Source: Marispirochaeta sp.
Lineage (GTDB): Bacteria > Spirochaetota > Spirochaetia > JC444 > Marispirochaetaceae
Reading direction: 5' to 3'
DNA length: 64,000 nucleotides
Assembly (NCBI GenBank): GCA_963676835.2
Contig: CAXXFF010000002.1
Coordinates: 1,216,001 to 1,280,000, forward strand
Of this stretch, positions 13,330-38,184 are shown piece after piece. A program made the translations under genes and the position numbers. Below the pieces are notes generated by a model. That model had not been told where the DNA came from. It searched no databases and was given only the letters and a program-made list of their open reading frames with translations. Every line of letters starts with the position of its first letter. Position 1 is the first letter of the stretch.

Positions 13330-13401
13330 ACTGGCCTCGGATTCTGTTCCGGCTGTGATAGAAACATTGCCGGAGCTTTCACGGGAGTGTATATTTTTCC
13401 C

Positions 13402-14544: not shown

Positions 14545-14770
14545 TATATTGGTATTTTTCCCGTATATCCTTTCTGGTCGCATACTTGTTCCCCGGGGGT
14601 ATGCGCAGAAATTTGCCGGATGAACAAGATTATTACGTAATTGTAAAGATTACATGCGCTGGTCAATTATCTTTTTTCCGGATAACGAATTAATAATACC
14701 TTCAATCTGTTCAATCCCGTTCGGGTGTGATAGCTTTATTGCTGTTACCCCAGGTACCCGGAGTCTGCAT

Positions 14771-17641
14771 ATGAACTCAAAAACCTTGTCTCTTTTCATT
14801 CTTATGGCGTGTACCGCCTTTTCTGCCTTTTCTGATACTTCCGATCCTCTTCTACGGCTGAATACGGAGATGCATACAGCGCCTATCAGGGCTATCGACA
14901 CAGATGCTGAATACCGCTTTGTTCTCACCGCAGGAGACGATAGAGTTGCACGCCTGTGGGATGCTGCTTCCGGCCGTCTTCTGAAGATTCTACGACCTTT
15001 TATTGGAGAAGGTAATGATGGACGGCTTTATTCCTGCGCCTTGTCTCCCGATGGGACTGAGGCTGTCGTGGGAGGATGGACCGGCCCTAGCGGGGATAAA
15101 TCCCTCTATTTTTTCAATACCGCTTCGGGTTCTCTAACCCATAGAATTGACGGCTTTAAAGATGTCATCAACTGTCTGAAATACTCTGATAACGGACGCT
15201 ATCTGGCTGCTGGTTTGGGTGGATCTAATGGCGTTTCTGTTATCTCTTTGCGGAACCACTCTGTTTACAAGCAGCTGGATGGATACAGCGCTCAGGTAAA
15301 GGGGTTATCGTTTTTCAGTGATGGGCGTCTGGCAGTTGTCTCCTATGATGGAGGAGTTCGTCTATACGACCGGCAGTTCGGGCTGGTGAAAAAGGTTCAG
15401 CTTGATAAAGAAAGCAGCCCCCGGGGTGTTGCGGTTTCTCCGGATGACAGCCGGATTGCCATTGCCTACTATAACAGCAGCAAGGTGGAAGTATACGACG
15501 GCATGAGTCTGAGACTTCTTTACACTGCAGACAGTGATGGAATAGATGAAAATGACGGCATGGTTAATGTTGCCTGGTCTTCTGACGGGCGCTATCTCTA
15601 TGCTGGCGGGCGCTACTCCAAATCCTTCGACGGAAAATGGTGGAGGGTTGTGCGCCGATGGGATAATCAGGGCCGTGGCATCTATGAAGATTTTCCCGGC
15701 AGCGGAAACACCATATGGGGACTGGTTTCCCTGAATAATGGGAACCTGCTGGTTGCAGGACACCGGCCCGACTGGGCACGTATAAATAACGCCGGCGAAC
15801 AGAGCCTTTACCGGGAGGGCATGATCCTCTCATTCCGACCGAAAAGCTTTGACAAGGATATGCTGTTAAACCCGGATGCCAGTAAAGTTACCTTTAAGCC
15901 AATGTCTGTCGATCCCATGACATTTTCCATTTCCGAACTCAGTCTGACGGAAGGCAGCTTTGAGGGGAATGCTTTCCGCTCCCAGGTGGGCGGAATAACG
16001 GTGACGGACTGGGATAACGGTGAAAATCCCCGCATAAACGGAACCCTTGTAGAAGGTTTCTCAAAATCTGAATTATGCCGAAGTGTCTCGGTTTCCCCCG
16101 ATGGAGATACGGTGATTCTCGGAACAGGCTGGTACTTGAGGGCCTATAATGCGGAAGCAGAATTGCTCTGGAAGATTCCTTCACCCGGTGAAAACTGGGC
16201 GGTAAACTGCTCTGCCGATGGAAAAACCGTGGTTGTTGGCCTTGGTGACGGGACTCTCCGCTGGTACAGACTTTCCGACGGCAAAGAGCTCTTAAATCTC
16301 TTTGTTCATTCTGACTGCAAACGCTGGGTCCTCTGGACACCCTCGGGTTACTATGCCTGTTCTCCTTCCGGAGAGGACCTGATCGGATGGCATATAAACC
16401 ATGGCCGGGACAGATCTGCTGATTTCTTCAGTGCATCCCGTTTTTCAGAGCGTTTCTACCGTCCGGATGTTGTTGCCCTTATGCTGGAAACTCTTGATGA
16501 GGACCAGGCCATAACCAGGGCTAACCGCCAGCGGAATATCCGGACAACCAACGCGAGCATTGCATCCATACTTCCTCCGGTTCTTGCTATACTTTCTCCC
16601 TCCGAAGGAGCAACTCACAGTTCTTCAACTATTCAGCTGCGCTATTCCGTACGAACTCCAAATAATGATCCTGTTCAGGAGGTGAGGGCAATGGTGAACG
16701 GCCGCCCGGTGGAAACTTCCCGGGGATTGAAGCTTGTCGCCTCCGGTTCCAGCGGAACTGAACAGTCTATAAATATTTCTCTTATGCCGGGAGAAAACTA
16801 CATCTCCCTCATGGCAAAGAATTCAACCTCATGGAGTGATCCTGCCACTGTTATGGTGAAGTACCAGGAACGGCAGCAATCATTTGTGGCAAAGCCGAAA
16901 CTCTATATTCTGGCAGTGGGGGTTTCGGATTACGCCAATCCTGATTACCGTCTTAATTATGCCGCCAAGGATGCCCGGGATTTTGCTGCAACCATGAAGG
17001 CCCAGGAGGGAGGGATTTATGAGGATGTTGAAATAAGGCTCCTCACCGACAAGGATGCAACCCAGGATAACGTTTTTGACGGTCTGGACTGGATACGGGG
17101 CCAGGCTACGGCTCGGGATGTTGCCATGATTTTTGTGGCGGGCCACGGGATTAATGATAACTCAGGCCGCCTCTATTACCTGACTCACGAGGCGGATGTG
17201 GACCGGCTGCGCCGGACCAGTGTTGCCGCCGATGAGTTTACCCAGACTATTCAATCCATTCCCGGCAAGGTTCTCTACTTTATGGACACCTGCCACTCCG
17301 GCGGGGTGAACATAGCCTCCCGCAGAGGGATCAATAGTGTAGATATGACGGGAATTATCAACGAGCTCTCTTCCGCCGAGAGCGGAGCGGTGGTTTTTGC
17401 CTCCTCTTCCGGAAAGCAGTACTCCCTGGAGGACGCAAGCTGGGGTAACGGTGCCTTTACCAAGGCCCTTATCGAGGGGCTCAAGGGTGGTGCGGACTAC
17501 ACCGGAAGCGGTAAAATAACTATCAATATGCTGGATCTGTATATTTCCGAACGGGTAAAGGAACTTACCCGGGGGCAGCAGACGCCGACCACTGCCAAAC
17601 CTGACACAGTGCCGGATTATCCGGTGGCGGTTAACGAATAG
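14771..17641 (+). CDS. Exported WD40 beta-propeller, Ig-like and caspase (peptidase C14) protein
   Basis: Signal peptide; WD40 repeats (TAGDDRVARLWD, SPDG); catalytic dyad FVAGHG and MDTCHSG. Confidence 0.88.
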   Translation: MNSKTLSLFILMACTAFSAFSDTSDPLLRLNTEMHTAPIRAIDTDAEYRFVLTAGDDRVARLWDAASGRLLKILRPFIGEGNDGRLYSCALSPDGTEAVVGGWTGPSGDKSLYFFNTASGSLTHRIDGFKDVINCLKYSDNGRYLAAGLGGSNGVSVISLRNHSVYKQLDGYSAQVKGLSFFSDGRLAVVSYDGGVRLYDRQFGLVKKVQLDKESSPRGVAVSPDDSRIAIAYYNSSKVEVYDGMSLRLLYTADSDGIDENDGMVNVAWSSDGRYLYAGGRYSKSFDGKWWRVVRRWDNQGRGIYEDFPGSGNTIWGLVSLNNGNLLVAGHRPDWARINNAGEQSLYREGMILSFRPKSFDKDMLLNPDASKVTFKPMSVDPMTFSISELSLTEGSFEGNAFRSQVGGITVTDWDNGENPRINGTLVEGFSKSELCRSVSVSPDGDTVILGTGWYLRAYNAEAELLWKIPSPGENWAVNCSADGKTVVVGLGDGTLRWYRLSDGKELLNLFVHSDCKRWVLWTPSGYYACSPSGEDLIGWHINHGRDRSADFFSASRFSERFYRPDVVALMLETLDEDQAITRANRQRNIRTTNASIASILPPVLAILSPSEGATHSSSTIQLRYSVRTPNNDPVQEVRAMVNGRPVETSRGLKLVASGSSGTEQSINISLMPGENYISLMAKNSTSWSDPATVMVKYQERQQSFVAKPKLYILAVGVSDYANPDYRLNYAAKDARDFAATMKAQEGGIYEDVEIRLLTDKDATQDNVFDGLDWIRGQATARDVAMIFVAGHGINDNSGRLYYLTHEADVDRLRRTSVAADEFTQTIQSIPGKVLYFMDTCHSGGVNIASRRGINSVDMTGIINELSSAESGAVVFASSSGKQYSLEDASWGNGAFTKALIEGLKGGADYTGSGKITINMLDLYISERVKELTRGQQTPTTAKPDTVPDYPVAVNE

Positions 17642-17675
17642 ATTTTAGAGGATTTTTTGTTTAGAAGGTGATGAC

Positions 17676-19211
17676 ATGCGAATTAAAAGTATTAGTGTAA
17701 GTATTCTTGTTCTGTTTGTTTCAGTACAGCTCTTTTCCCTGCCCCGCTGGGCGCGGGAATACGGGGCGGTAACCCCCTACAATACGGAGGAAAACGTTAC
17801 CGGATTCGGAACCTCCGAGTACGGTGATGACATCCCCATGGAGGCGGCAAAGCTCCGGGCCGCAGACGACCTGATCCGCAAGGTGAAGGTGGAGATAAAG
17901 AGTAATATAACCCTCACTGCCAATGATACTTCCGGCCGCGGATCTTCCGGGATGGATCTGGTGACCACCAGTACCAGTGTACTTCAGCTGGAAGGTATCG
18001 AATACGAGACGGAACGGGACGGCAGCACCTGGTATGCCCTTGCCCATATAAGCAGGGATTCCATTGCCCGCACATACAAGCAGAAGGCGAAGGAGACTGT
18101 AACGGATCTTGAGGCAGGTCTTTCCCAGTGTGATTCCGCTTTTAACGCCGGAAAAAACAGCGACGCCTATGACCTGGCAGTCAATCTTCTGCCCTTGTTT
18201 GACCGGCTTAAGGATGAAGCGGGCATCTACCGCTTTGCAGCGGCCGCATCCCTGCCTGCAGAAGTTTACGGACGCCGTATCAGCAACGACGGCAAGGCAG
18301 CCTATGAACTGGCACAGCTGAAAAGCCGCATCCGGGACCTTTCCGGTTCCGATGCCGCTGATCCGGCAGATGCCGTGCGGCGGATTGCCGCCATGTTCGC
18401 CGAACAGGGAATTTCGGCCTCGGACTTTACCGTCGCTCCTTTCCTCTTTCAGAATACCGACTTTTCCAGCCAGTTCGGCCAGTACATGGGCCAGCGCCTG
18501 CGGAGCGAACTGCTGAAGCGGCTGCCGCCGGTACGGGGCAAAGCTGCAGTTGCTGTACAGGGCCGCTACCTGGTGCGGGAGGGCAAGGTAGAGCTTTCTG
18601 TCTCCGCCCGCAGTGTGGACGGAAGCTCAAGCGGATCCGCCTGGGCGGAGTTTCCCGAAGTCAAACTGCCGGGAGATCTGTCGGTGGAACCCGGCAACTA
18701 CGCGGAAGCCATTCAGGACATGCTGCAGCTTGCCGACGGGGCCCTTGTTGACGGCGGCTTGAGTATCGAGGCCTGGACGAACCGCGGACGGGATGCGGAG
18801 AGCCTGGTTTTCGGCGACGGGGAGGAGCTTGAGCTCTATTTCCGGGTGAATCAGCCTGCCTTTATTCAGATTACCTATGCTCTTGCTACTGGAGAAAAGG
18901 TGCTGCTGGATGAGAGCTACTATATCGGCGATGACAAGGTAAACCGGGTGGTTAAATACCCTTATGCCTTTGAGGTATGTGCTCCCTATGGAGTTGAACG
19001 GATGATTATAAGTGCCTTCAGCAAGGAACCGCCGAAACCGAATGTAATAATCCGGCTTATTGACGGTGAGGAGTACGAGGTTTTTACCAGTGCAGCTGCT
19101 GCTGTCATGCAGACCCGGGGAGTTCACCGTGTCAGGGAAAAGGATGACGACGGCATGAAGACCGGAGAAATGATCCTGACCATGACCACCGTGCCGAAGC
19201 TGGCCGATTAA
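17676..19211 (+). CDS. Exported LPP20-like, FlgO-like and C-terminal DUF4384-like protein
   Basis: Signal peptide; LPRWA...TGFG; SQFGQYM; GEELELYFRVNQPAFI...APYGVE. Confidence 0.6.
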   Translation: MRIKSISVSILVLFVSVQLFSLPRWAREYGAVTPYNTEENVTGFGTSEYGDDIPMEAAKLRAADDLIRKVKVEIKSNITLTANDTSGRGSSGMDLVTTSTSVLQLEGIEYETERDGSTWYALAHISRDSIARTYKQKAKETVTDLEAGLSQCDSAFNAGKNSDAYDLAVNLLPLFDRLKDEAGIYRFAAAASLPAEVYGRRISNDGKAAYELAQLKSRIRDLSGSDAADPADAVRRIAAMFAEQGISASDFTVAPFLFQNTDFSSQFGQYMGQRLRSELLKRLPPVRGKAAVAVQGRYLVREGKVELSVSARSVDGSSSGSAWAEFPEVKLPGDLSVEPGNYAEAIQDMLQLADGALVDGGLSIEAWTNRGRDAESLVFGDGEELELYFRVNQPAFIQITYALATGEKVLLDESYYIGDDKVNRVVKYPYAFEVCAPYGVERMIISAFSKEPPKPNVIIRLIDGEEYEVFTSAAAAVMQTRGVHRVREKDDDGMKTGEMILTMTTVPKLAD

Positions 19212-19233
19212 TAAAGGTTCCGGATAGTTTCTC

Positions 19234-20505
19234 ATGTTCAAGCTGGATGGTCTTGGAAACATACGCAAGGTCCGTTGGACCGGTCTGCGTCCGGGGGTGG
19301 TGATCCTTTCGGGGGTCTCCATCAACGATCATCCCATCCCCGAGCTGACGGGCTTTCCGGTGCTTACCGAATCTTTAATTTCTGATCTCTCCTCCCGTTA
19401 CCAGTTTCTTGCCGGCCGGGAGGTTGTTGTTGCCGAGGCGGTCTATAACTATTCACCCTTTGAGTTTGCCGATCAGCTCCGGCATTCAGAAAAACAGAGA
19501 AACAGCTTCAACCGTCTGCGCCGGGATTTTGAAGAGACGAAAAAGATGGTCCTTCTCAATATGGGCCTGGACCTTCAGACGGATGTTCCCGTAATCGGGT
19601 CTGACCATGTTGACCGGGAGTACATGGTGAAGGATACCTACAACTCCTTTTCCTATCTTTATGGGCTTGGAGAGGACCTGGATGCGATTCCCTCCTTTTT
19701 TCACCGCATGGACTTGAGCCTTTCCCTGGCCGACCTGGTTACCAACCGGCTGCAGGAGAAATTCAATGTCCCCGATGACAGCGAGGTGGTGCTGCATCTG
19801 GTGGTTGATTTTTCAAGAAGCATGGACTCCATGGGCAAGCTCGATCTGGTGGTACAGACGGTTAATGCTTTTTACAGCTTTTACTCTGAGCTTCTTGCCA
19901 ATACCACCATAAAACTCTACACCTTTTCCGATGAGTGCCGGCCGGCCCGGTATCCGCTGCAGGAGGCAGGAGTCCGCCGGGGAAACACCGCCTACGGCTC
20001 TTTTATGAAAAAGGTTCTGCACCTTAAGGAAAAGGAAAAACGCAACAAGATAATCCTCTTTACCGACGGAGTGCCCACGGACCGCAGTGAAGCACTGAAG
20101 ATGGCGGAGCTGATAAAGAAGAACTGCCTGGACTATACCCAGATCATCTTCGACATTAAAGAGGAGAGGCGCACCGAGGTTGTCTATGCTGACGGTATGG
20201 TTGTGGACGCCGTTGACAATATGGTGGAAGAGCTGTCGGCGGGTATGTCGGAACGGGTCCTCTCCGACGAGGATCTGGACGCAAAAATGAAAGGGATCTT
20301 TGATGACTTTACCGAAGTAGCTGAAAGCTGCGGCGGTAATCAGATCATCCTTAAAATAAATGAACTGCTCAATCTGGTAACGGTGGAATGTTATGACCGC
20401 TATCTCGGTCTGTTAAGCCTCGCCACGAGAGCAGAAACTGTCCAGGTTGAAGAGACCCGGACTGATAAGCCGCAGGTAAAAAAATGGAGCCCCCCGCGGG
20501 TGTAA
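19234..20505 (+). CDS. vWA-domain protein, apparently cytoplasmic
   Basis: MIDAS VVDFSRSM and LFTDGVP; no signal peptide. Confidence 0.72.
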   Translation: MFKLDGLGNIRKVRWTGLRPGVVILSGVSINDHPIPELTGFPVLTESLISDLSSRYQFLAGREVVVAEAVYNYSPFEFADQLRHSEKQRNSFNRLRRDFEETKKMVLLNMGLDLQTDVPVIGSDHVDREYMVKDTYNSFSYLYGLGEDLDAIPSFFHRMDLSLSLADLVTNRLQEKFNVPDDSEVVLHLVVDFSRSMDSMGKLDLVVQTVNAFYSFYSELLANTTIKLYTFSDECRPARYPLQEAGVRRGNTAYGSFMKKVLHLKEKEKRNKIILFTDGVPTDRSEALKMAELIKKNCLDYTQIIFDIKEERRTEVVYADGMVVDAVDNMVEELSAGMSERVLSDEDLDAKMKGIFDDFTEVAESCGGNQIILKINELLNLVTVECYDRYLGLLSLATRAETVQVEETRTDKPQVKKWSPPRV

Positions 20506-20526
20506 AAAAACAGCAGGAGAAAAAAC

Positions 20527-21735
20527 ATGAATAAGCTGTTCACCATTGTGTTGTCCTTCGTAATATTCTTTTCTTTATCCTTAAGCATGTCCGCCCAGGA
20601 CTGTGTCAGCTTTGTGGAGGTTCAGGAGAAGACGCAGTTTGTGCTGGTTGTAGACCGCAGCGGCAGTATGGCCGGCGATCCCCTTCGGGATGCGAAGCAG
20701 GCGGTAATAAACTTTATTAACAGTATGCAGCCCGGAGATTCGGCGGCCCTGATTACCTTTGAAGATCAGGTGCATGTGAATCATAACTTTTCCTCCGACC
20801 GGGCAAGCCTGGTGCAGGCTGTACGGAATATTGAGACCGGCGGCAGGACCCGTTTTTACGATGCCGTGGCAGCTGCCGCCCGTATGCTGAAAGGGAAAAG
20901 CGGCCGTACGGCGATTCTTTTTCTTACCGATGGTAACGACAACGAAAGCAGTTTTTCCCTGAATAATATACGGCAGATGAATATCGGTGAACAGAATGTC
21001 GTTTACGGCATTGGGCTGGGGAATATCGACCATAATGGCATAAGCGCCCTGAGTACCGCCACCGGCGGACAGTACCGGGCAGCCCGGGGATCGGGTGAAC
21101 TCAGTTCTTTGTATGCTGACCTGCAGAAACTCTATTACACCGAATATCGGGATACCCGGAACAGCAGCGGAGGGTACACGGTTACCTCTCTTCCCGGCGG
21201 GAAAAGTGTCTACTTTGACGGAACCCTGGCCGGTACAACACCGCTGAATATGGACGGGATCAGTCCCGGCGAACATGTGGTGCAGGTGGAGTTTGAAAAC
21301 GGCCTGTGGGAATGCCGCAGTCAGTTAAAAGCGGGAACCAAGGGTTATATTACCGCCCGGTCTGCCGACCTTCCTGGTATTTTTTACATTGAATCATCTC
21401 CCCGGGGTGCGGCGGTTTTCATTGACGATACCTACGTGGGGCTCACTTCCATGATACCTTCACCTGTGGTGAATGGTTCCCGGGATCTTTCCGGACAGCT
21501 TCAGGTTAAGGATCTTCCCGAAGGTAAGCATACGGTAAAAATTATAGCCGCCCCGGATCTTGAACTCTCCGCAGCCCAGGAGATGGTGTTTGATTTCGAA
21601 ATGCGCAAGGCAAGCCGTTATGTGATTGTTAACGTGCTGGGAGGAAAGGCCCTGTTTGCCAACGGGGAACGGAAGCAGCGAAATATTGGCGATATGATTG
21701 AGAATGCCTTCAGCGACCCTATGTTTAATGACTAG
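20527..21735 (+). CDS. Exported vWA plus PEGA-domain protein
   Basis: Signal peptide; DRSGSM, T and LTDG MIDAS residues; PEGA-like SLPGGKSVYFDG...GTTP and SSPRGAAVFID. Confidence 0.85.
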   Translation: MNKLFTIVLSFVIFFSLSLSMSAQDCVSFVEVQEKTQFVLVVDRSGSMAGDPLRDAKQAVINFINSMQPGDSAALITFEDQVHVNHNFSSDRASLVQAVRNIETGGRTRFYDAVAAAARMLKGKSGRTAILFLTDGNDNESSFSLNNIRQMNIGEQNVVYGIGLGNIDHNGISALSTATGGQYRAARGSGELSSLYADLQKLYYTEYRDTRNSSGGYTVTSLPGGKSVYFDGTLAGTTPLNMDGISPGEHVVQVEFENGLWECRSQLKAGTKGYITARSADLPGIFYIESSPRGAAVFIDDTYVGLTSMIPSPVVNGSRDLSGQLQVKDLPEGKHTVKIIAAPDLELSAAQEMVFDFEMRKASRYVIVNVLGGKALFANGERKQRNIGDMIENAFSDPMFND

Positions 21736-21781
21736 TCCAAAAATTAGCTTAATGACTGATCGGATTGGAAGAGGTAATGTC

Positions 21782-23461
21782 ATGACACGAATAAAGATAG
21801 TCGTACTGCTGCTGATGCTTGTTCCGGCAGCACTTACCGCCCAGCAGGCCCAGGGGCTGGACCCGGTCCCCGGGGCACTGAATATCTCCCTGCCCCAGGC
21901 GAATCCCCGGGGCATTGTCTCCGCAGCCGGAGCTGCTCCCGGAGACGGTGAGACTGCACAGGCCCTGCCTGCAAAGGTTGACCTGCAGCAGTTTCTGCCG
22001 CCGGTGAAAAACCAGGGGCAGATCGGCAGTTGCGCCGCCTGGGCCAGCGTCTATTACGCCAAGACAATACAGGAGAACCAGGAGCGCCGCTGGGGTGCGG
22101 ATAATGCGGACCACCAGTACAGCCCTCTTTTTACCTACAACCAGATTACCAAAGGGGTAAATGAGGGCACCGCTATTCAGGATCATATGGTGCTGATGGA
22201 AAAGCTCGGGGCTGCCCCGTTCAGCAGTTTTCCCTACGCGGATAACCTCAATGTCCAGCCCGATGCTAAGGTACTGAAGGCGGCGGAAAAGTATCCGGCT
22301 TCGTCTCACAAGAACCTGGATACCTACGATTACACAACAAAAACCTGGTCGGTAAAGCTTGAGTCCGTTAAAGCTACCCTTGCCGAGGGGCTGCCTGTTG
22401 TGGGGGGATTTCAGGTCTATGAAAACCTGCACAGCTACCGGGGCGGTATTTACAACAAGGTAGCCGGGGCTGCTTCCGGCGGTCATGCGATGTGCATTAT
22501 CGGCTATGACGATTCTAAAAATGCTTTGCACCTGGTTAATTCCTGGGGAACATCCTGGGGAGACCAGGGCTTTCTCTGGATGGACTACGATCTGTTTGAA
22601 GAGCTCTGCACCTACGGCTGCGTGGTTATGTATGACACGGTTATTCCCGTACCTGATAGCATTCAGGCTCCGGTGAATCTTGAAGGCAGCAGGGGGGTAT
22701 ATAAAAACCGCATAGAGCTCTCCTGGACTGCCGTGGATGGGGCGGAACTCTATATCGTCTACCGGGTGGATAACGCCGAGGGAGTTCTGAAAGAGGTCGG
22801 CCGGACCGATGAACCCGCCTGGATCGAAGAGAATCTTCCCCCCGGGGTGACCTATGTCTATGCCGTAAAGGCTGCGAAGAAAAAGGGCTCCGGTCTGCTT
22901 GAGAGCGATTTCAGTGAGATAGCCGAAGGATGGACAGTGGAAGAGAAGTTTCCTCCGGGAATCCCCTCTAATCTTACCTTCGGATTTTTTATGGGAAACC
23001 CCGTTCTGGTTTGGCTGCCCGTGGAAGAGGCTGAAGGCTACAACGTCTACCGCTGGTCCGATGCTGAAGAGGCCTTTATGCTGTTAGGCAGTTCAAAGGA
23101 TTCGGCCTTTATGGATTCCGGGTATAAAAATCTTAATGAAGCAGGAATTATCTACTATATCGTGCAGGCCTATAACGCCAACGGCGAGGGCTACCCCACG
23201 GAGAGCCTTGCGGTGCTGAAGGAGATAGCCGAAGAGAAGCCCGAGGAAGAGATTATCGAAACCGATACCCTGAAGGATGATATTCCCGCAGAAAAGAAAG
23301 AGGCCTTCGACGGTGATTTCTACCGCACCGATTACTTTGATTACGAGTACACCGTGAAACAGTTCCGGGAATACTACGAGAAGGAGATGCAGGCCTTCCG
23401 GGATTTTCAGAAGAACGAAGCGGACAGCTTTGAGGCCTGGAAGCGGCAGCACAGCCGGTAG
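21782..23461 (+). CDS. Exported papain-like (C1) cysteine protease with fibronectin-III repeats
   Basis: Signal peptide; QGQIGSCAAWA (Cys), GGHAMCIIGYDD (His), NSWG (Asn); two Fn3-like repeats; acidic helical tail. Confidence 0.9.
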   Translation: MTRIKIVVLLLMLVPAALTAQQAQGLDPVPGALNISLPQANPRGIVSAAGAAPGDGETAQALPAKVDLQQFLPPVKNQGQIGSCAAWASVYYAKTIQENQERRWGADNADHQYSPLFTYNQITKGVNEGTAIQDHMVLMEKLGAAPFSSFPYADNLNVQPDAKVLKAAEKYPASSHKNLDTYDYTTKTWSVKLESVKATLAEGLPVVGGFQVYENLHSYRGGIYNKVAGAASGGHAMCIIGYDDSKNALHLVNSWGTSWGDQGFLWMDYDLFEELCTYGCVVMYDTVIPVPDSIQAPVNLEGSRGVYKNRIELSWTAVDGAELYIVYRVDNAEGVLKEVGRTDEPAWIEENLPPGVTYVYAVKAAKKKGSGLLESDFSEIAEGWTVEEKFPPGIPSNLTFGFFMGNPVLVWLPVEEAEGYNVYRWSDAEEAFMLLGSSKDSAFMDSGYKNLNEAGIIYYIVQAYNANGEGYPTESLAVLKEIAEEKPEEEIIETDTLKDDIPAEKKEAFDGDFYRTDYFDYEYTVKQFREYYEKEMQAFRDFQKNEADSFEAWKRQHSR

Positions 23462-23506
23462 TAAAAAACGTTTAATAGAATCAGCTGAAAACTAACGGAG
23501 TACATC

Positions 23507-24178
23507 ATGAAAAAACTGATTACAATTTTACTGACATTCACCACTCTCATATCCCTGTCTGCTCTCCCTGAGCAGGCAGATATACCTGACTGGTATCTTA
23601 ATCCCCCGGAACCCGAAAATAAAATCGTCGGACTTGGCGCGCATAAAGCGGATAACCCCGGCTCCTCGGTTATTCTCTCCCTGGTTCACAGCCTTGGGCA
23701 GATATCAACTATTGCTGCGGCAAAATATGAGAATGCAGAAACCACCTACGATAATGAAGAAGGGCTTCCGGATGTCAAGTTTGAAGAGGCTGTTCTCAAA
23801 GGTAAGGCTATGGTCAGTATAGGGACGTGCATTATACATGCGGTTTACACTGATTATCTCCAGACTACAAGCAATGAGGAAGGTGAACAGACTATCTCTT
23901 TTGCAGAGTTAATTGAGAAAGTCCTTCTGCCCTATAAAGGAGGATATGTCTGCCTGACCAGTACGGTGCAGGACAGTGCGGTGGATGATGATGCAGATCA
24001 TAAACAGCACAGTAATATTGAGCCCGATTTTTCTCCCCGGGATTTTTACTATCAGCTTATGGCCATTCTCGAAGAGGCCGGCTGTGAGATTGAGAAGTAT
24101 TTTGCCGAGGATGGTACGGTGTATACCAAGGCTGTAATAAGCTGGGATGCGGTGAAGGCTCTGGCAGAAGAGAGTTGA
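23507..24178 (+). CDS. Exported LPP20-like protein
   Basis: Signal peptide; PDWYLNPP...GLG; homologous to the C-terminal half of 31827-33185. Confidence 0.6.
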   Translation: MKKLITILLTFTTLISLSALPEQADIPDWYLNPPEPENKIVGLGAHKADNPGSSVILSLVHSLGQISTIAAAKYENAETTYDNEEGLPDVKFEEAVLKGKAMVSIGTCIIHAVYTDYLQTTSNEEGEQTISFAELIEKVLLPYKGGYVCLTSTVQDSAVDDDADHKQHSNIEPDFSPRDFYYQLMAILEEAGCEIEKYFAEDGTVYTKAVISWDAVKALAEES

Positions 24179-24287
24179 GGAATTATCGAATAGTCTATGC
24201 TCTGAGTGTAAAAAGTAAAAGTGTGAATACAGTTAATGGCTTAACAACTCGAACACTAAAAAAGTTGTAAAACTGGTGAGGATTTAA

Positions 24288-27689: not shown

Positions 27690-27725
27690 TCTTATCTGGG
27701 TGAAGCGAAGAGAGAAGATAAAAAC

Positions 27726-30035: not shown

Positions 30036-30045
30036 GGAATAAGAT

Positions 30046-31803
30046 ATGAAACGAACATTTTTTGCAGCACTGTTTTTAACTATTCTAATGGCCGTAACGG
30101 CTTTTGCACAGAACAAGACGGCCCTGCTGATCGCTAACGGGGACTATCAAAACTTCTCCTCCCTGGCAAACCCGGTGCCCGAGGCCCGGCAGCTCAGAAG
30201 CGCTCTGCAGCGTCTTGGATTTCAGGTAACCCTCCTGACGGATGCTGATAAAGAGGAGATGATTATCGGCCTGCGGAACTTTCAGCGTTCCGTTAAAAGC
30301 CGGGGCGGTGTCGCCTTTTTTCACTACGGCGGCCATGCGGTGCAGGTGGGGGGTAAGAACTACCTTATTCCTGCAAATGCAGATATTCCCGATGAGGATT
30401 ACGTAAGCCTCCGCGCCATGGATGCGGAGGAGATTATGGTCAGCCTTGAGCATTCCGGAAGCGACAGCAATATCGTTATTCTCGACTCCTGCCGCAACAA
30501 TCCGCTGCCAGCAGGTTCGGGCAGAAGCGCGTCCCGCGGTCTGGCGGTTGTCGGGAAAGAGCCGCCCAATACGGTGATCGTGTACTCTGCAAAATCGGGA
30601 CAGGTTGCCCGGGACGGTGTATTTACCCCGGCTCTTACCAGGGCTCTCACCTCTCCGGGATTAAGCATTCAGGAGATCCTGATGCAGACCCGCCAGAAGG
30701 TGTATGAACAGACCAAGGGTGCCCAGATTCCCGGTGAGTACAACCAGCTTTTTGAACCGGTATACCTCGCCGGCCGCGGTAGTTCAGGCGGCGGAAACAA
30801 TATAAGCTTCGGCGCGGTAACTGTGGAACCCGGTTCGCTCACCATAAATGTAGTTGAAGCGGGCACCCTGGAAATCAACGGACAGTCCGTGCAGATACCC
30901 TCCGGAGGCAGCATTCCGGTGAATGGACTTGATCCGGGGAGTTACATTCTTTCTATGCAGTATGGAAATGGACTTCGGGAAACTAAGACTGTTGAGGTTG
31001 AGAGCGGGATCAGTAAGAGTATTGCCTTCAGTTATGTGGTTAGAACGTCTACGGTTAGCCGCATGTCTTTAGACGATAGCTTTGTGCTGGTAAAAGCTGG
31101 AAGTTTCACCATGGGGTCACCATCCAATGAACCTGACAGGAAGGATAATGAAGCACAACATCAGGTAACCCTGACCCGGGATTTTTACATTAGTAAATAC
31201 GAAGTAACTCAGGGATTGTGGAAAGAGGTAATGGGAAATAATCCTTCCGAAGTAAGTACAGGTATCGATGTTAATTATCCAGTTAATGAAATCAGCTGGA
31301 TTGAAGCGGTGGATTTTTGCAATAAACTCAGTCGCCGACAAGGCCTCAATCCCGTTTATAGTGGTTCGGGAGATAGTATCCGCTGTGACTTCAATGCCAA
31401 CGGCTACCGGCTGCCCACGGAAGCAGAGTGGGAGTTCGCGGCGCGTGGTGCTCAGTCGTTAGAGAGCTATCAGATTTATGCGGGCTCGAATAGTTTGGGT
31501 AATGTTGGCTGGTTTTACAACAACAGTGGCGGTAAAAACCATGCGGTAGGGCAGAAGTCACTTAATCCCCTGGGGCTTTATGATATGAGTGGGAATGTAT
31601 TTGAATGGTGCTGGGACTGGTATGGCAATTACAGTGGAACGGTAATAAATCCAACGGGAGACGAATCAGGATCTTACCGAGTAACTCGTGGGGGCAGCTG
31701 GCTTCAACGCGATAGGTTCAACCGTTCGGCTTTTCGAGACTTTCGTAGTCCCTATGCGAGTGCTGATGATGTTGGCTTTCGCCTTGTTCGCACTGCAAAT
31801 TAG
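30046..31803 (+). CDS. Exported caspase (C14), PEGA-like and FGE-sulfatase (SUMF1/CLec) protein
   Basis: Signal peptide; FHYGGHA and LDSCR; FTMGS, RLPTEAEWEFAARG, GLYDMSGNVFEWC, RGGSW and GFRLVR. Confidence 0.9.
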   Translation: MKRTFFAALFLTILMAVTAFAQNKTALLIANGDYQNFSSLANPVPEARQLRSALQRLGFQVTLLTDADKEEMIIGLRNFQRSVKSRGGVAFFHYGGHAVQVGGKNYLIPANADIPDEDYVSLRAMDAEEIMVSLEHSGSDSNIVILDSCRNNPLPAGSGRSASRGLAVVGKEPPNTVIVYSAKSGQVARDGVFTPALTRALTSPGLSIQEILMQTRQKVYEQTKGAQIPGEYNQLFEPVYLAGRGSSGGGNNISFGAVTVEPGSLTINVVEAGTLEINGQSVQIPSGGSIPVNGLDPGSYILSMQYGNGLRETKTVEVESGISKSIAFSYVVRTSTVSRMSLDDSFVLVKAGSFTMGSPSNEPDRKDNEAQHQVTLTRDFYISKYEVTQGLWKEVMGNNPSEVSTGIDVNYPVNEISWIEAVDFCNKLSRRQGLNPVYSGSGDSIRCDFNANGYRLPTEAEWEFAARGAQSLESYQIYAGSNSLGNVGWFYNNSGGKNHAVGQKSLNPLGLYDMSGNVFEWCWDWYGNYSGTVINPTGDESGSYRVTRGGSWLQRDRFNRSAFRDFRSPYASADDVGFRLVRTAN

Positions 31804-31826
31804 TAACCGGATTAAAGGAATAAGCC

Positions 31827-33185
31827 ATGAAAAAATCAATAACCATTTTCCTAATGCTTCTAAGCCTCCTTTCCCTCACCGCCGAAAACCGCTACGCCCT
31901 GATTATCGGTAACAGCGAATACGCTGATTTCGGCAGTCTTCAGGAGCAGCCGGTAAACGATGCGGCTGACATCTCCGCCTCTTTAAAGCAGCTTGGCTTC
32001 GAGGTAACCACCCTGCAGAACGCGAGCCTGCGGGATATGAAGAACGCCACCCGGGTTTTCCGCAGCAGGCTCCATGATGACGCCGAAGCGGTGGGCCTCT
32101 TCTACTATGCCGGCCACGGCCTGCAGCATGACGGGGAAAACTACCTGATACCCTCCGATGCGGTAATCCCCGACGCGGTGGAGCTGGAGTACGAAGGCTA
32201 TAAAGTCAGCTATCTCATGGACCAGATAAGCGCCGCCGGCAATCAGCTGAATATGGTGATCCTCGATGCCTGCCGTGATTTTCCTGCGGCCTGGACCCGG
32301 TCTGTAAGCCGGGGACTGACGGTGGTGGGAAACCGGCCGGCAGGCAGCCTGATAATGTTCGCCACCAGCGAAGGTGATGTGGCGGATAACGGCTCCGGCA
32401 GAAACGGCCTGTTTACCTCCGTTCTGCTGGAACACCTGCAGACCACGGGTATTGATGTTGAAGAGGTTTTTGAACGGACCGCGGCAGGGGTACAGGAAAA
32501 GAGCAATGGAAAACAGATTCCTGAAGTGTACGACAAGTTCACCGGGGATGTGTATCTTGCGGGAATAGTGAATCAACAGGAAAAAGATGTTCCCGGTTGG
32601 TTTAACAATCCTCCCTGGTTTGATGATGCCATTAGCGGTGTAGGCAAGCACAACTCGGATGAGTTGGGGGCTGCCATTCTTTTATCCCTCGTCCATAGCC
32701 TGTGCGATATTTCCAACCTGATGAATGCGAAGGTTGACTCGAAGATCACGGACTATACCACTGAAGAAGATGGTGAAATACAATTTGTGGAAGCAATTAC
32801 AAAAATGACCTCTGAAACCAGCCTCGGGTCGATCAACATTCAGGCTCAGGAAACAGATTATTTTCAGGAAGCAAGTTCATTGAAGGGTACTCAGACTCTT
32901 TCAATTAAAGAAAAAACAGCACAGGTTGTATTCAGCAGCAGTGGCACGGTTTACCAGATACTCAGTGTATCTCAGGACTCGGAAGAGAAGGGTGAGCCCA
33001 AACATGTTGATGCCTTTGAGGTTAATCCCGAACTGTCTCCCCGGGACTGCTACAAGCTGCTGTTGGCTCTTGTTGAAGATGCCGGGGGAGAAGTGCAGAA
33101 ATATATAGCCGGAGACAAGACGGTGTATGCAATGGTAACTGTGGACAAGAACAGTCTGACAGTGCCGGAACCTGAAACCCCTTAA
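31827..33185 (+). CDS. Exported caspase (C14) plus LPP20-like protein
   Basis: Signal peptide; ALIIGN, YYAGHG and LDACR; C-terminal half is paralogous to 23507-24178. Confidence 0.87.
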   Translation: MKKSITIFLMLLSLLSLTAENRYALIIGNSEYADFGSLQEQPVNDAADISASLKQLGFEVTTLQNASLRDMKNATRVFRSRLHDDAEAVGLFYYAGHGLQHDGENYLIPSDAVIPDAVELEYEGYKVSYLMDQISAAGNQLNMVILDACRDFPAAWTRSVSRGLTVVGNRPAGSLIMFATSEGDVADNGSGRNGLFTSVLLEHLQTTGIDVEEVFERTAAGVQEKSNGKQIPEVYDKFTGDVYLAGIVNQQEKDVPGWFNNPPWFDDAISGVGKHNSDELGAAILLSLVHSLCDISNLMNAKVDSKITDYTTEEDGEIQFVEAITKMTSETSLGSINIQAQETDYFQEASSLKGTQTLSIKEKTAQVVFSSSGTVYQILSVSQDSEEKGEPKHVDAFEVNPELSPRDCYKLLLALVEDAGGEVQKYIAGDKTVYAMVTVDKNSLTVPEPETP

Positions 33186-34234
33186 TTAACCGAATAACTG
33201 AGCACCGGCCAGTAGGACCGGCGGCCTTTGTATTCGATATAAACTGAAATCTTCAAGGTTCCTCTTTGGGGTGTAATGGTACCGGAAAAAATATCCCCGT
33301 TTTTTTTCAAATAAGAGAATGACTTGTTGTTCCCTACAAAAGCTGCCTGGTCAACTCCGGGAACCCGCAGCTGAAACTCAATCTCTTCTCCGGACTGCAG
33401 GGTTTTCTGTATGGGCGCATTCACTATTTCAATTTCAGCATCGTACTGATCATAACTCTCGGGAATCCCCATCCCCTGACTTAAGCTTGCCTCCATTACT
33501 GCTTCTTCAACACCCAGAGCATAGAGGCTTTCAAAGAAAAAGGATTTATAATATTTCCGTACAACATAATCCGTCATGGAGATTGGCTCTGCAGTCAGCT
33601 GCCACTCTTCCTCTTTCGGCAGGTGGGTCCACAGAAAAAGTTCCGGAGAACAGTCAAACCAGAAGGCGCTGAAATCCCATACAAAAGACCTGTTCGAAAC
33701 ATGACCGGCTCCCCAGGTTGAATCCATCAGGCGCCAGCTGCCGTCCACAAGCACAGCATTCCAGGCATGGTTGGTGCGGCTGAATCTGCTGCGGTCCCTG
33801 TAACCGTAGCCTTTCGCGTAGCCCGATATCAGCCGGGAATCAAGACCAAGGCCCCGTGCCAGGCTGTTAAAGAGTTCCGCGTATCCCTGGCATACGGATT
33901 TACCGGTTCTGAAAACTCCGCCCGGATTTGTAACGGCACGTCTGCCGGAAAAGTATGCAGATGCATCGTAGGCGATGTTTGAAGTCATCCAGATGTAAAC
34001 CGCCCGGGCTTTTTCCATGTCGGTTTCAGCCAGGTTTGAAAGCTGAGTGATAGTCTCTTCAATACTCTCCGCTTCGTGAAGCTCCCGGACGGCGCTGTCG
34101 AGATCAATGAAGGAGAGGTCAGATCCTGAAGTATCAGCATCCGATACCGGAGAATCTGCAAGCAGGAAAGGAAACAGGGATATTGATAAAAAGACTGCAA
34201 TGCATATCAGTTTTGTATGGATTGTTTTATACAT
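33182..34234 (-). CDS. Exported transglutaminase-like (Cyk3/KY-type) protein
   Basis: Triad VCQGYA, HAWNAV and DSTWG; HLP...WQL motif; hydrophobic N-terminus. Confidence 0.88.
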   Translation of the reverse strand: MYKTIHTKLICIAVFLSISLFPFLLADSPVSDADTSGSDLSFIDLDSAVRELHEAESIEETITQLSNLAETDMEKARAVYIWMTSNIAYDASAYFSGRRAVTNPGGVFRTGKSVCQGYAELFNSLARGLGLDSRLISGYAKGYGYRDRSRFSRTNHAWNAVLVDGSWRLMDSTWGAGHVSNRSFVWDFSAFWFDCSPELFLWTHLPKEEEWQLTAEPISMTDYVVRKYYKSFFFESLYALGVEEAVMEASLSQGMGIPESYDQYDAEIEIVNAPIQKTLQSGEEIEFQLRVPGVDQAAFVGNNKSFSYLKKNGDIFSGTITPQRGTLKISVYIEYKGRRSYWPVLSYSVN

Positions 34235-34278
34235 TTCGGATCCTTAATATTCGAACATGGAGTAATTATATAATAGTG

Positions 34279-34701
34279 CTATAGAAAAAGTGTTTTCAGT
34301 CCCGGAAATCGGGAAAAATCCCGGTCGGTAGTGACCCACTCGCAGCCGTGTTCAATAGCCAGAGCAGCAAAGTACGCATCCGGAATCAGGTTCCCCTTTG
34401 CCTGAGCTTCCGTACACAGCTTGCTGAAAATATTCCAGTGCCGTTGTTCCGGACGGACTGTAACGGCATTCGGCCGTGAACGTATTGCTTCAATAAAGTT
34501 GAGGGCGTTCTCTATGGAATCAGGGTTTTTGAATATCTTCGGATGGGTAACAATCCGCAGGAATCCGCTCAGTGCCAGTTCGCAGATTCCGAAATCCGAC
34601 GGTGAGTTTATGGTTTCCTGAAGCCATTCGTAAACCGGCTTATGGCGTTCGGTGTCGGTTCTGAATGCGTAAACATAGATGTTTACATCACACAGGACCA
34701 T
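34279..34701 (-). CDS. vapC: VapC PIN-domain toxin
   Basis: LCDVNIYVYA, FLRIVTHP, DAYFAALAIEHG and TTDRDFSRFPGL. Confidence 0.9.
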   Translation of the reverse strand: MVLCDVNIYVYAFRTDTERHKPVYEWLQETINSPSDFGICELALSGFLRIVTHPKIFKNPDSIENALNFIEAIRSRPNAVTVRPEQRHWNIFSKLCTEAQAKGNLIPDAYFAALAIEHGCEWVTTDRDFSRFPGLKTLFL

Positions 34702-34942
34702 TGTTCTTTTCCATTATGTCATAGAGGTCGGCTGAGTTATCCAGATCGATTCCCCCTGCAACTCCTCCGGTCTTCTCCGAGACTGTCAGGGTAATCGGTT
34801 CAAGTTCTTCCGGAGCAGGATAGCGCAGGAATTTTTCCCGCAATGCCTGCTCAATAATCTCTCTTAAGGGTTTATGTTCCTTCAGCGCCAGGTCTTTTGC
34901 TTTCTGAAGAAGAGCATCATCCAGATCCATTGTGGTTCTCAT
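34688..34942 (-). CDS. vapB: VapB-type antitoxin
   Basis: MRTTMDLDDALLQKAK RHH-like N-terminus and GIDLDNS tail; overlaps vapC. Confidence 0.82.
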   Translation of the reverse strand: MRTTMDLDDALLQKAKDLALKEHKPLREIIEQALREKFLRYPAPEELEPITLTVSEKTGGVAGGIDLDNSADLYDIMEKNNGPV

Positions 34943-34949
34943 GCATATA

Positions 34950-34978
34950 AGCATACTGCCGGGGCATAAATATGTCAA
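34950..34978 (-). promoter_or_regulatory. Sigma70-type promoter of vapBC, probably giving a leaderless transcript
   Basis: Minus strand TTGACA-17 nt-TATGCT, then 7 nt to the ATG at 34942; near-palindrome ATGCATATAAGCAT over the start. Confidence 0.65.
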
Positions 34979-35025
34979 TTTTGGGGAATCGAGCCGGTAA
35001 AAGCTATTCTGTTCACTGAATTGCC

Positions 35026-35529
35026 TTAAGCAACCTTGAGAAACAGTGCGGTAACAACCCCGATCTGCCCTATCCAGAAGAGAAACATCCATTTGATGTT
35101 GTTGGCAGCAGACTGGTGCATCTCAACTCTTAAGGTACCTATGCTTGTGTTCATTTCTCCCCGCAGACTTGAGACCTCTTCAGTAAGTTTCTTATCAAAC
35201 CGCTGTTCCAATGATGCAAGATCAACCCTGATGGCTGAGACCTCTTCCACCAGCTTCTTCTCAAACCGGCCTTCAGATTCGGTAAGCTCAACCCGGATGG
35301 CAGAAGTTTCTTTCTCTAGCTTCTTCTCAAACCGGCCTTCAGATCCTGCAAGATCAACCCTGATGGGAGATATCTCTTCCGCCAACTTTCTTTCAAACCT
35401 GAGTCCTGCAGTTTGGATAACAGAATTTTCCGTCTCTTTCTCCTGCTCGTTGAGCACGGCAATCAGCGCGTCGGAGCCTTCGTCTCCGAGCTTCTCCCGT
35501 AATGGTTTCGGTATGGATATTAATGGCAT
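35026..35529 (-). CDS. LA_3696/DUF1640-like coiled-coil protein with a C-terminal membrane anchor
   Basis: MPLISIPKPLREKLGDEG...; 22-aa repeats; IKWMFLFWIGQIG tail. Confidence 0.8.
   Translation of the reverse strand: MPLISIPKPLREKLGDEGSDALIAVLNEQEKETENSVIQTAGLRFERKLAEEISPIRVDLAGSEGRFEKKLEKETSAIRVELTESEGRFEKKLVEEVSAIRVDLASLEQRFDKKLTEEVSSLRGEMNTSIGTLRVEMHQSAANNIKWMFLFWIGQIGVVTALFLKVA
35170..35400 (-). repeat. 66 bp (22 aa) tandem repeat, about 3.5 copies
   Basis: AGCTTCTTCTCAAACCGGCCTTCAGAT recurs at 35252 and 35318; protein units EISPIRVDLAGSEGRFEKKLEK, ETSAIRVELTESEGRFEKKLVE and EVSAIRVDLASLEQRFDKKLTE. Confidence 0.8.
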
Positions 35530-35725
35530 TCTCTGCTTCCTTACCATACTGATACCGTGTAAAGTATATTCTGATTTCATTCAGCGGTCAAATCGGGCTC
35601 TTTTGATCTGGGTTCTATCAGTAGTTTCCTTGTTTCAAAAGCCCCGATGGCCTAAAATAGGAGAGAAATATATACCTGCATCTTTATAGCTGTGACTGAA
35701 AAAGTGTACTTGCAAGGGGGATCCC

Positions 35726-37273
35726 ATGCGCCTGAAGATTTTTCTACTGCCCATACTGATTTTCATAGCCGGTCTGCCGGTTTTTTCCCAGAACAAAACT
35801 GCCCTCCTGATAGCCAACGGTAACTACAAAAACTTCTCCTCCCTGGCCAACCCGGTAACCGAGGCCTCACAGCTTAAGGCCGCTCTGCAGAATTTGGGGT
35901 TTCAGGTAACCCTGATCACCAATGCCGGCAGGGAGCAGATGCTGGACGGTCTTATGGACTTTGAGCGTTCCGTGAAGCAGCGCGGTGGCATCGCCTTCTT
36001 TCATTACGGCGGACATGCCGTACAGGTGGCGGGCAGCAATTACCTTATTCCGGCAAATGCCGATATCCCCGATGAACGGCGGGTCAGTACCCGGGCGGTG
36101 GACGCCGAAGAGATCATGGCCACCCTGGAGGCCTCCGGGAGCGATACCAATATTGTAATCCTGGACTCCTGCCGCAATAATCCTCTGCCGTCAGGCAGCG
36201 GACGCAGCGCCAGCCGCGGGCTGGCGGTTGCCGGCAAGAAACCGCCCAACTCCATTATCGTCTACTCCGCCGAGTCGGGTACCGTCGCCCGGGACGGCGT
36301 GTTTACTCCAGCCCTTATCCAGGCACTCTCCATGACGGAAAAGAGCTTTCAGGAGATTCTGATGCAGACCCGCCAGCGGGTTTATAACCTGACCAATGGA
36401 GCCCAGATTCCCGGAGCCTATGACCAGCTGTTTGCACCGGTCTATCTTGCGGGGATACCTTCCGGAGAAAACACAGGCAGGATAATTCCGGATGGAAACA
36501 GCAGTCCCCCTGCTGCTACGGCAAGCCGGCCGCAGGTATCCGAGGACTTTGTGCTGGTAAAAGCGGGAAGCTTTACTATGGGCTCACCGTCTTCTGAAGT
36601 TAACAGGGGTGCTGATGAAACTCAGCACCGGGTTACCCTGACCCGAGATTTTTACATGGGTAAATACGAAGTGACCCAGGGGGTGTGGCAGGAGGTGATG
36701 GGGAGTAATCCCTCTGATACGTCAAGGGGGATCGGGTCCGGTAATCCTGTTAACAAGGTAAGCTGGTACGACGCGGTGGAATTCTGCAACAAGCTGAGCC
36801 TGCGTGAAGGATTTACCCCTGCCTACAGCGGTTCAGGAGACAATATCCTCTGTAACTTTAATGCAAGCGGCTACCGTCTTCCCCTGGAGGCGGAGTGGGA
36901 ATACGCCGCCCGGGGCGGAGTGCGGGCGGGAGGATATAATATTTATGGGGGAAGCGACAGTATCGGAAGTGTCGCGTGGTCTGGAGTCAATAGCGGGAGA
37001 ATCACCCATCCTGTGGGGCAGAAACAGGCCAATGAGCTGGGGCTGTACGACATGAGCGGTAATGTGTGGGAGTGGTGCTGGGACAGGTATGGTAGTTACA
37101 GCGGAAATGCAACTGATCCAGGCGGTAGTGCCTCGGACTCCTTACGCGTGTTGCGCGGGGGTAGCTGGAGCGACAACCGCGTCGATTACTGCCGTTCGGC
37201 AAATCGGGCCAGCATCCTTCCAGGTGCCCATTACAGCAATAATGGCTTCCGCCTTGTCCGAACGGCGCAGTAG
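35726..37273 (+). CDS. Exported caspase (C14) plus FGE-sulfatase (SUMF1/CLec) protein
   Basis: Signal peptide; FHYGGHA and LDSCR; FGE motifs; caspase domain closely paralogous to 30046-31803. Confidence 0.9.
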   Translation: MRLKIFLLPILIFIAGLPVFSQNKTALLIANGNYKNFSSLANPVTEASQLKAALQNLGFQVTLITNAGREQMLDGLMDFERSVKQRGGIAFFHYGGHAVQVAGSNYLIPANADIPDERRVSTRAVDAEEIMATLEASGSDTNIVILDSCRNNPLPSGSGRSASRGLAVAGKKPPNSIIVYSAESGTVARDGVFTPALIQALSMTEKSFQEILMQTRQRVYNLTNGAQIPGAYDQLFAPVYLAGIPSGENTGRIIPDGNSSPPAATASRPQVSEDFVLVKAGSFTMGSPSSEVNRGADETQHRVTLTRDFYMGKYEVTQGVWQEVMGSNPSDTSRGIGSGNPVNKVSWYDAVEFCNKLSLREGFTPAYSGSGDNILCNFNASGYRLPLEAEWEYAARGGVRAGGYNIYGGSDSIGSVAWSGVNSGRITHPVGQKQANELGLYDMSGNVWEWCWDRYGSYSGNATDPGGSASDSLRVLRGGSWSDNRVDYCRSANRASILPGAHYSNNGFRLVRTAQ

Positions 37274-37313
37274 AGGCGTTTATTTATATGTGGATCGAAA
37301 ATAGAGCCTCTGG

Positions 37314-38004: not shown

Positions 38005-38184
38005 CGAGTTAACTATAGCGGCATTGCAGTGATGGAGCAAGTCTTCTGTTTTTCCCGTCAAATCCCTGATGCGGTCGTCCTGCGGCATGATGTGTGAAAA
38101 TTAAAAATTCAATTTCTAATTCTTATGAGCATTCTGTAATTAACCAGTACTATTAATGATGCTGTCATCAGAACTACTGGTAAT

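Follow-up and report, generated by a model that had tools for sequence, protein, structure and literature searches.

The window analysed here, a stretch of 64,000 nucleotides from Marispirochaeta sp. (assembly GCA_963676835.2, contig CAXXFF010000002.1), carries a 22-kb gene array that includes five genes for caspase-family (C14) proteases. Comparison with other genomes shows that what is conserved at its core is the side-by-side pairing of a gene for an exported C14 protease with g2, the gene of an exported protein ending in a DUF4384 domain, and that the array as a whole is a fast-changing insertion-site island, not one conserved system. We tentatively propose, rating the idea a little short of an even chance, that the sensor-fused C14 proteases, which are predicted to be exported and Arg-specific, act outside the inner membrane and cleave both themselves and g2 within a common x-Arg↓Gly-hydrophobic site. 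Genes are numbered as in Table 1, G000 is the genome under study, G001-G005 are five congeners, and L numbers designate loci fetched from genomes. Publications are cited from excerpts.

Matches to g2 occur in 61 of the 401 genomes of the class, from which we fetched 40 of the stronger places and three further loci, leaving the weaker places out. A C14 gene is present at 12 (from nine families) of the 29 loci with a long-form g2 (426 kb), within 1 kb at 9 of them, in tandem, divergent and convergent layouts and in varied architectures. For these 29 loci, chance would give ~0.2 at mean C14 density and ~0.9 at the density of the richest genome; since relatives do not count as independent cases, Poisson values overstate the linkage. 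The short form of g2 was found at 14 loci: 12 match our own DUF4384 profile, 6 of these with a C14 gene, and the two dropped loci also carry one. Metagenomes provide 17 further g2 loci, some of them near-duplicates, and 10 hold a C14 gene. With 523 clusters at E <= 1e-30, the family of g2 is a large one; g2 was not found in viral contigs, and a relative at locus L095 is 81% identical to it.

Other genes of the array are not linked in this way. Relatives of g3 are present in 23 of the 401 genomes, with a C14 gene at 2 of 17 g3 loci (three short-match loci were left out), and relatives of g5 in 39 genomes, with a C14 gene at 2 of 21 g5 loci and g2 at 2 of 21. The C1 protease, vWA, Sel1 and transglutaminase-like genes are loosely linked companions and do not form a fixed core. 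A preliminary description of this DNA had suggested a neighbourhood search for C14, DUF4384, vWA and C1 genes together; the gene set is not kept together in distant genomes, where the g2-C14 pair alone recurs.

The five C14 proteases (g1, g7, g9, g10 and g15) match Pfam Peptidase_C14 (PF00656) with 57-120 bits, for a cut-off of 21.4, and all five possess the His and Cys of the catalytic dyad, as first described, g9 and g15 having His-Ala and not His-Gly. Five of the eight Pfam C14 matches of the genome are located in the island. A ninth C14-like gene (L009:7817-11899; G000:C3:491817-495899), found by BLAST and our own profile and not by the Pfam genome search, encodes a lipoprotein-like protein of 1360 amino acids (aa) with WD40, C14-like and FGE parts and RG-hydrophobic motifs after the Cys. 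C14 matches (93) were found in 40 of 61 related genomes. The g10 domain has many relatives (6536 of 7996 candidates were scored); those of the best 120 that carry a name come from spirochaetes.

Searched against the PDB, the g10-type domain profile matches the MALT1 paracaspase best (E 1e-28). The S1 pocket residues of MALT1, Asp365, Asp462 and Glu500 (PMC4357240), align by hand count to D26, D128 and D169 of the g10-type domain, which are acidic and at least 90% conserved in an alignment of 102 rows. By the same count, the positions of Asp365 and Asp462 are acidic in all five island proteases, and the third is acidic in g1, g7 and g10 and alignment-ambiguous in g9 and g15. The substrate consensus of MALT1 is S/P-R↓G/A (PMC6237847), and characterised non-caspase C14 members prefer Arg/Lys (PMC5756287). 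The five island proteases are therefore predicted to be Arg-specific.

Export was called with a home-made N-terminal rule for signal peptides and lipoboxes, a rough stand-in for SignalP. Between 14771 and 37273 this rule flags exactly ten proteins, the number originally proposed: g1, g2, g4, g5, g6, g7 (lipobox), g9, g10, g11 and g15. Its background is 2 of 24 control window proteins (both hydrophobic at the N-terminus and likely to be membrane sensors) as well as 728 of 2929 open reading frames (ORFs) of the genome (25%). No signal is found in g3 and g8, nor in any of the 56 g3 relatives starting with Met. The rule is passed by 51 of the 70 distinct C14 domains in the fetched loci, truncated and broken genes included, and by 101 of the 113 g10 relatives starting with Met; the remaining three C14 genes of the genome also start signal-like by eye. 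Judged from these N-termini, export appears to be the rule for Spirochaetia C14 proteases. The N-terminal helices of prokaryotic C14 proteins were considered "likely to be signal peptides" in 2012, in a study reporting 20 operons with up to three metacaspases (PMC3501461), and a periplasmic caspase-like CHAT domain, that of DdvA, has been structurally characterised (PMC11506125). Given these reports and the Spirochaetia signals, the premise of the preliminary description that characterised bacterial caspase-like proteases act in the cytoplasm was too strong.

All five proteases carry x-Arg-Gly-hydrophobic, a site that the preliminary description missed, after the catalytic Cys, with the Arg at Cys+11 to +16. 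Of 119 relatives of the g10 domain, 114 have the motif, 113 at Cys+13. This region corresponds to loop L4, the place of the conserved cleavage site of caspases (PMC4357240); autoprocessing is required by the orthocaspase MaOC1 (PMC5756287). A second copy lies in the immunoglobulin (Ig)-like linker of g1 and g7, and some relatives have it likewise. In the 5753 residues of the ten exported proteins, [ST]RG[LIVF] occurs 9 times versus 0.93 expected from the genome rate, a count in which paralogues are not independent.

The g2 protein carries the same motif. Its structure model (predicted local distance difference test, pLDDT, 81) begins with an LPP20 part and a helical bundle, continues with an LpoB-like domain and ends in an Ig domain. 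Residues 17-204 match Helicobacter pylori HP1454 (4kzs; Foldseek E 6e-6, Z 9.3, root-mean-square deviation (rmsd) 3.4 A over 150 residues), residues 209-309 resemble LpoB (Z 8.4, rmsd 3.0 A over 93 residues), and DUF4384 resembles the macroglobulin-type Ig domain of C3, C5 and alpha-2-macroglobulin, with a middling Z of 8-9 (rmsd ~2 A, ~95 residues). A loop of pLDDT < 50 (mature residues 458-471) precedes the last strand and opens with T-R-G-V. All 43 aligned relatives keep the Arg-Gly. Among 147 representatives at 50% clustering, 141 have RG-hydrophobic within the last 75 residues, and Arg and Gly are 97% conserved versus 16-63% for nearby loop columns; of the six without the motif, one is truncated and several have near variants.

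A separate exported C14 clade shows a different motif. Its proteases bear RLKG after the Cys, in L4, and R[LI]KG recurs in the product of the gene upstream at 3 of 3 loci, one of which is in G000. The latter (L010:7693-11350; G000:C1, ~881.7-885.4 kb) encodes an extracytoplasmic function (ECF)-sigma-like protein, a membrane anti-sigma-like protein (both by eye) and an exported C14 protease with a repeat-rich C-terminus; RLKG is shared by the anti-sigma-like protein and the L4 loop of the caspase, and the same pairing occurs at L128 and L135. A third C14 clade, of lipoproteins encoded next to a uvrB-like gene, lacks both motifs; its members may be housekeeping proteases of the envelope. Its C14 protein is conserved, ~315 aa long and in most cases lipoprotein-like at the N-terminus; the preceding gene encodes an exported protein of ~190 aa, and a ~663-aa gene that looks like uvrB from its N-terminus is convergent with the C14 gene. 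This arrangement was observed at L124, L129, L132 and L134, and in similar form at L110, L113, L117, L125, L127 and L130, in many Spirochaetia families.

Comparison with the congeners shows how variable the island is. Both flanks (sufC-sufB and the ABC operon) are syntenic across all five. In G001, G003, G004 and G005, none of g1-g11 or g15 lies in the sufB-to-ABC interval, which measures ~2-3.4 kb in G001, G003 and G005 and ~8 kb, with different genes, in G004. G002 is the sole congener with part of the array, in a shorter version of ~16 kb that holds g1-g5, a C14-FGE gene, g10, g11 and a second C14-FGE gene, and lacks g0, g6-g8, PIN/VapB and HEPN/MNT at the island site. Frameshifts or stops affect three of its four island caspases, g1 among them; g2-g5, g10 and g11 are intact. 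In the G002 flanks, 23 of 24 queried genes align full length and unbroken, the 24th, at the end of the fetched DNA, having no match. Split C14 or C14-FGE genes in other spirochaetes (L035:14293-16124, L099:2522-4066, L004:7555-8412) suggest that this protease type often decays. Across slots, the binding domains are 40-58% identical to their G002 counterparts and the C14 domains 81-90%: for g1, 47-58% in the propellers and 86% in C14; for the g9 slot, 40% in FGE and 81% in C14.

These comparisons bear on several earlier claims. The genes from 14771 to 33185 had been described as co-oriented with short gaps, and indeed g1-g10 share one orientation with intergenic gaps of 10-109 nucleotides (with the g5 start set at 21782); promoter and terminator scans of the stretch gave results near shuffle level. 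One contig, which may be the source of this DNA, contains 12000-31999 unbroken and with no differences. An extracytoplasmic module had been proposed in which varied binding domains are joined to one protease type. Export signals, dyads and fusions to propellers, FGE/C-lectin-type and LPP20-like domains agree with this view, but one conserved 22-kb module does not, as the island recurs only in G002, and there partly, and g3 and g5 relatives lie mostly away from caspases. The preliminary description had also held that a combination not conserved elsewhere would point to an accidental pile-up: the full array is found nowhere except, partly, in G002, but the g2-C14 pair does recur.

Under the reading that we prefer, cleavage at the shared Arg-Gly site, the proteases and g2 would be exported through Sec to the periplasm or surface. 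The variable domain (propeller, FGE/C-lectin-type or LPP20-like) would bind a ligand and promote activation, plausibly by MALT1-like dimerisation; a cut at the Arg-Gly in L4 would mature the protease or relay a signal between proteases, and the DUF4384 loop of g2 would be a dedicated downstream target, the nick altering the shape or binding of g2. The fast gain, domain swapping and decay of protease genes would point to a role in envelope-level conflict or surveillance. A more ambitious version, which we regard as doubtful, is an extracytoplasmic caspase cascade of spirochaetes. Threats to the envelope would be sensed by interchangeable receptor-fused MALT1-like proteases, which would activate each other through an Arg-Gly tag and all act on one dedicated DUF4384 protein; this would be the bacterial envelope analogue of signalling by initiator and effector caspases or of a complement-like system. 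DUF4384 loops would then be a general clan CD cleavage module, each tag matching the L4 of the cognate protease.

Several observations weigh against cleavage at a shared site. RG-hydrophobic follows the Cys in only 34 of the 70 distinct Spirochaetia C14 domains, and MALT1 itself is uncleaved in L4 (PMC4357240). In the model, the g2 motif comes after a short helix, so that Gly-hydrophobic could be a helix cap, which could explain part of the motif. Our own scan found no membrane span or cytoplasmic domain in g2, and no output is therefore visible. The motif is not enriched in other exported proteins near caspases (0.33 vs 0.26 per 1000 aa), and the Arg of the g5 PRGI varies among relatives, so that g5 is not supported as a strict Arg-Gly substrate. 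No C14 gene is present in the fetched DNA at 17 of the 29 long-g2 loci and, in the reverse direction, a g2-like neighbour was found at 1 of 40 C14-anchored loci (40 of 93 places, many on short contigs). A PDB sequence search with the propeller-type C14 (g1) gave no clear match (best E 0.36), which restricts a direct analogy with MALT1 to proteases of the g9/g10/g15 type. Finally, PADLOC gives the five proteases a generic caspase model only, with no anti-phage indication.

Two other explanations deserve attention. The island could be a pile-up of exported proteins at an insertion site, with Arg-Gly a structural turn or helix cap kept separately in each family. This would fit an array that is complete in no other genome, the low GC content of g7 (0.42, for ~0.5 in its surroundings), the interleaved toxin-antitoxin passengers and the lack of motif enrichment in other neighbours. 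We nevertheless consider it unlikely, given the linkage of g2 and C14 genes, which greatly exceeds chance and spans differing orientations and architectures, a near-invariant Arg within an otherwise variable g2 loop, and another clade in which both members switch to Lys-Gly. Alternatively, g2 could be a bait-loop inhibitor or chaperone restraining secreted Arg-specific proteases that would degrade outside proteins in feeding or attack, its loop mimicking the L4 of the enzyme. A soluble g2 with no visible output, the middling resemblance of DUF4384 to macroglobulin-type Ig domains, a g2 that stays intact in G002 though three caspases decay, and the papain and transglutaminase-like enzyme alongside all speak for this explanation. 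We think it improbable too: most C14 genes have no g2 nearby, the motif-bearing partner in the sigma-type operons looks, by eye, like a membrane anti-sigma, i.e. a substrate, and an Ig fold match shows no function.

The proteases might also be polymorphic toxins or immune receptors diversified by a diversity-generating retroelement (DGR), C14 being a releasing peptidase or a death effector. A constant protease with variable partner domains is compatible with this view, caspase-like peptidases exist in Sec-exported polymorphic toxins (PMC3482391), and TvpA, a variable protein of Treponema, is another match of the g10-family profile, by way of the FGE part. Pfam finds no toxin domain in the five proteins, however, whose C-terminal domains are C14, FGE-type or LPP20-like, and the genome has no NACHT. 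As DGR targets, the genes were rejected: the two reverse transcriptases encoded in the genome both score above the cut-off of the group II intron model, and no template-like copy of the FGE 3' ends was found in the genome. This very improbable reading is largely excluded for this genome.

Table 1. Features of the island and its surroundings (positions in the window)
Feature	Position	Strand	Description
Variable island	12611..38184	.	Between sufB (end 12610) and DUF362/ABC operon
g0	13387..14544	+	BNR-like propeller, predicted lipoprotein; upstream, co-oriented; missing in G002
g1	14771..17641	+	Signal peptide, WD40 propellers, Ig-like linker, C-terminal C14, His and Cys intact
SRGL in g1 Ig-like linker	16718..16729	+	Same motif in Ig linker of several relatives
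RRGI in g1 L4 loop	17321..17332	+	Arg at Cys+11
g2	17676..19211	+	Signal peptide, LPP20-like part with three-helix bundle (HP1454-like), LpoB-like fold, DUF4384 Ig domain
TRGV in g2 DUF4384 low-confidence loop	19113..19124	+	Predicted cleavage or bait site
g3	19234..20505	+	vWA, no signal peptide; metal-ion-dependent adhesion site (MIDAS) DxSxS, TDG; loosely linked passenger
g4	20527..21735	+	Signal peptide, vWA, PEGA
g5	21782..23461	+	Signal peptide, papain-family C1 protease, fn3; PRGI in N-terminal extension
g6	23507..24178	+	Predicted exported; 35% identical to g10 tail; weakly LPP20-like; missing in G002
g7	24288..27689	+	Predicted lipoprotein, propeller-like region, Ig linker, C14; GC 42%; not at G002 site
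TRGL in g7 Ig linker	26766-26777	+	
SRGF in g7 C14	27372-27383	+	
g8	27726..30035	+	Sel1 repeats, no signal peptide; missing in G002
g9	30046..31803	+	Signal peptide, C14 (SRGL 30532-30543), FGE-type domain
g10	31827..33185	+	Signal peptide, MALT1-like C14 (SRGL 32307-32318), g6-like weakly LPP20-like tail
g11	33182..34234	-	Signal peptide, transglutaminase-like Cys-His-Asp enzyme; retained in G002
PIN toxin, VapB antitoxin, LA_3696-family coiled-coil protein	34279..35580	-	Passengers; PIN/VapB missing in G002
g15	35726..37273	+	Signal peptide, C14 (SRGL 36212-36223), FGE-type; g9 paralogue (72% in C14)
Right flank	39494-44128		ABC transporter operon with ABC_transp_aux, DUF7088, DUF4340 domains; conserved in five congeners

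The remaining genes of the array largely bear out their first assignments, namely a papain, a transglutaminase-like enzyme, two vWA proteins and a Sel1 protein. Pfam recognises Peptidase_C1 and fn3 in g5, where the catalytic Gln/Cys, His and Asn motifs are seen, and Transglut_core in g11, with its Cys, His and Asp motifs. For vWA, g4 passes the Pfam cut-off and g3 falls under it; g3 has the vWA fold (164 residues superposed at rmsd 2.1 A, Z 19.6), its N-terminal ~180 residues having no match among the fold matches listed. The g3 family is conserved at 33-60% in ~20 of the 401 class genomes in varied contexts, its named relatives being Spirochaetota, and atlas searches with g3 and g6 yielded no usable family. 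LPP20- and DUF4384-like proteins had also been listed; both domains are present, but both Pfam matches are below cut-off and in a single protein, g2.

Two toxin-antitoxin pairs, VapBC (34279-35092) and HEPN/MNT (37314-38088), lie inside the island, and both are missing in G002. The LA_3696-family gene (35026-35580) has internal DNA repeats and a relative at the same site in the island-less G003; other relatives adjoin C14 genes in L101 and L102. The N-terminus of g8 (27726-28000), ahead of the Sel1 repeats, weakly matches a MotA/MotP-type model (E 0.01).

The g2-C14 pair and its shared Arg-Gly tag have no description in the literature searched, as far as excerpts go: PMC7935541, PMC4933709 and PMC3482391 contain nothing on the pair in the parts seen, and the operon supplement of PMC3501461 (Dataset S1, Table S2) could list such neighbours. 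A specific partner and a specific peptide bond turn the question of what exported bacterial caspases cut into a two-protein test, and cleavage of g2, if true, would give DUF4384 a function.

Among known systems, the Myxococcus xanthus DdvA-DdvS pair (PMC11506125) also involves a periplasmic caspase-fold protease, a proposed signal-induced proteolysis and a defence context. However, DdvA is a TPR-CHAT protein fused to a membrane anti-sigma, whereas the island proteases are separate C14 proteins with no sigma/anti-sigma in the island: no ECF sigma or membrane anti-sigma occurs among the 20 ORFs of 12856-39063, such an operon being located on another contig. Some copies of Csx30, the substrate of the type III-E Craspase, carry DUF4384, a domain often fused to proteases (bioRxiv 10.1101/2022.08.17.504292); Craspase differs in its CHAT protease, CRISPR-RNA trigger and sigma output, none of which was found in the island. 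The preliminary description had seen no gasdermin, STAND or CHAT partner. This holds for NACHT, which has no match in the genome (97% complete), and the one CHAT gene lies ~300 kb from the island; for gasdermin it holds among the island proteins, where no Pfam, NCBIfam or PADLOC model matches, the genome not having been searched by family.

Other likenesses concern the components. The fold matches of g2 to HP1454 and LpoB, at 11-16% identity, do not cover DUF4384, and a shared fold shows no function. MALT1 (PMC4357240, PMC6237847) resembles the g10 type in sequence match, acidic S1 triad and a consensus similar to the island motif, but it is an animal protein of the cytosol, its other domains are death and Ig domains, and its L4 lacks Arg-Gly and stays uncleaved. 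Prokaryotic C14 homologues, the metacaspase-like proteins or orthocaspases (MEROPS C14B; PMC3501461, PMC5756287), share the His-Cys dyad, WD40, FGE and Sel1 associations and likely signal peptides, their operons contain up to three metacaspases, and characterised non-animal members prefer Arg/Lys. Orthocaspases of cyanobacteria have DUF4384 among their accessory domains (PMC7475262). By the count of a 2017 review, a single prokaryotic C14 member had been characterised biochemically (PMC5756287). The island differs from these homologues in having five C14 genes, all predicted to be exported, and in the g2 linkage and Arg-Gly site, which the excerpts of these sources do not contain. The component families and the predicted export of C14 proteins (2012) were already known, and the g2-C14 pair with its tag is the testable result.

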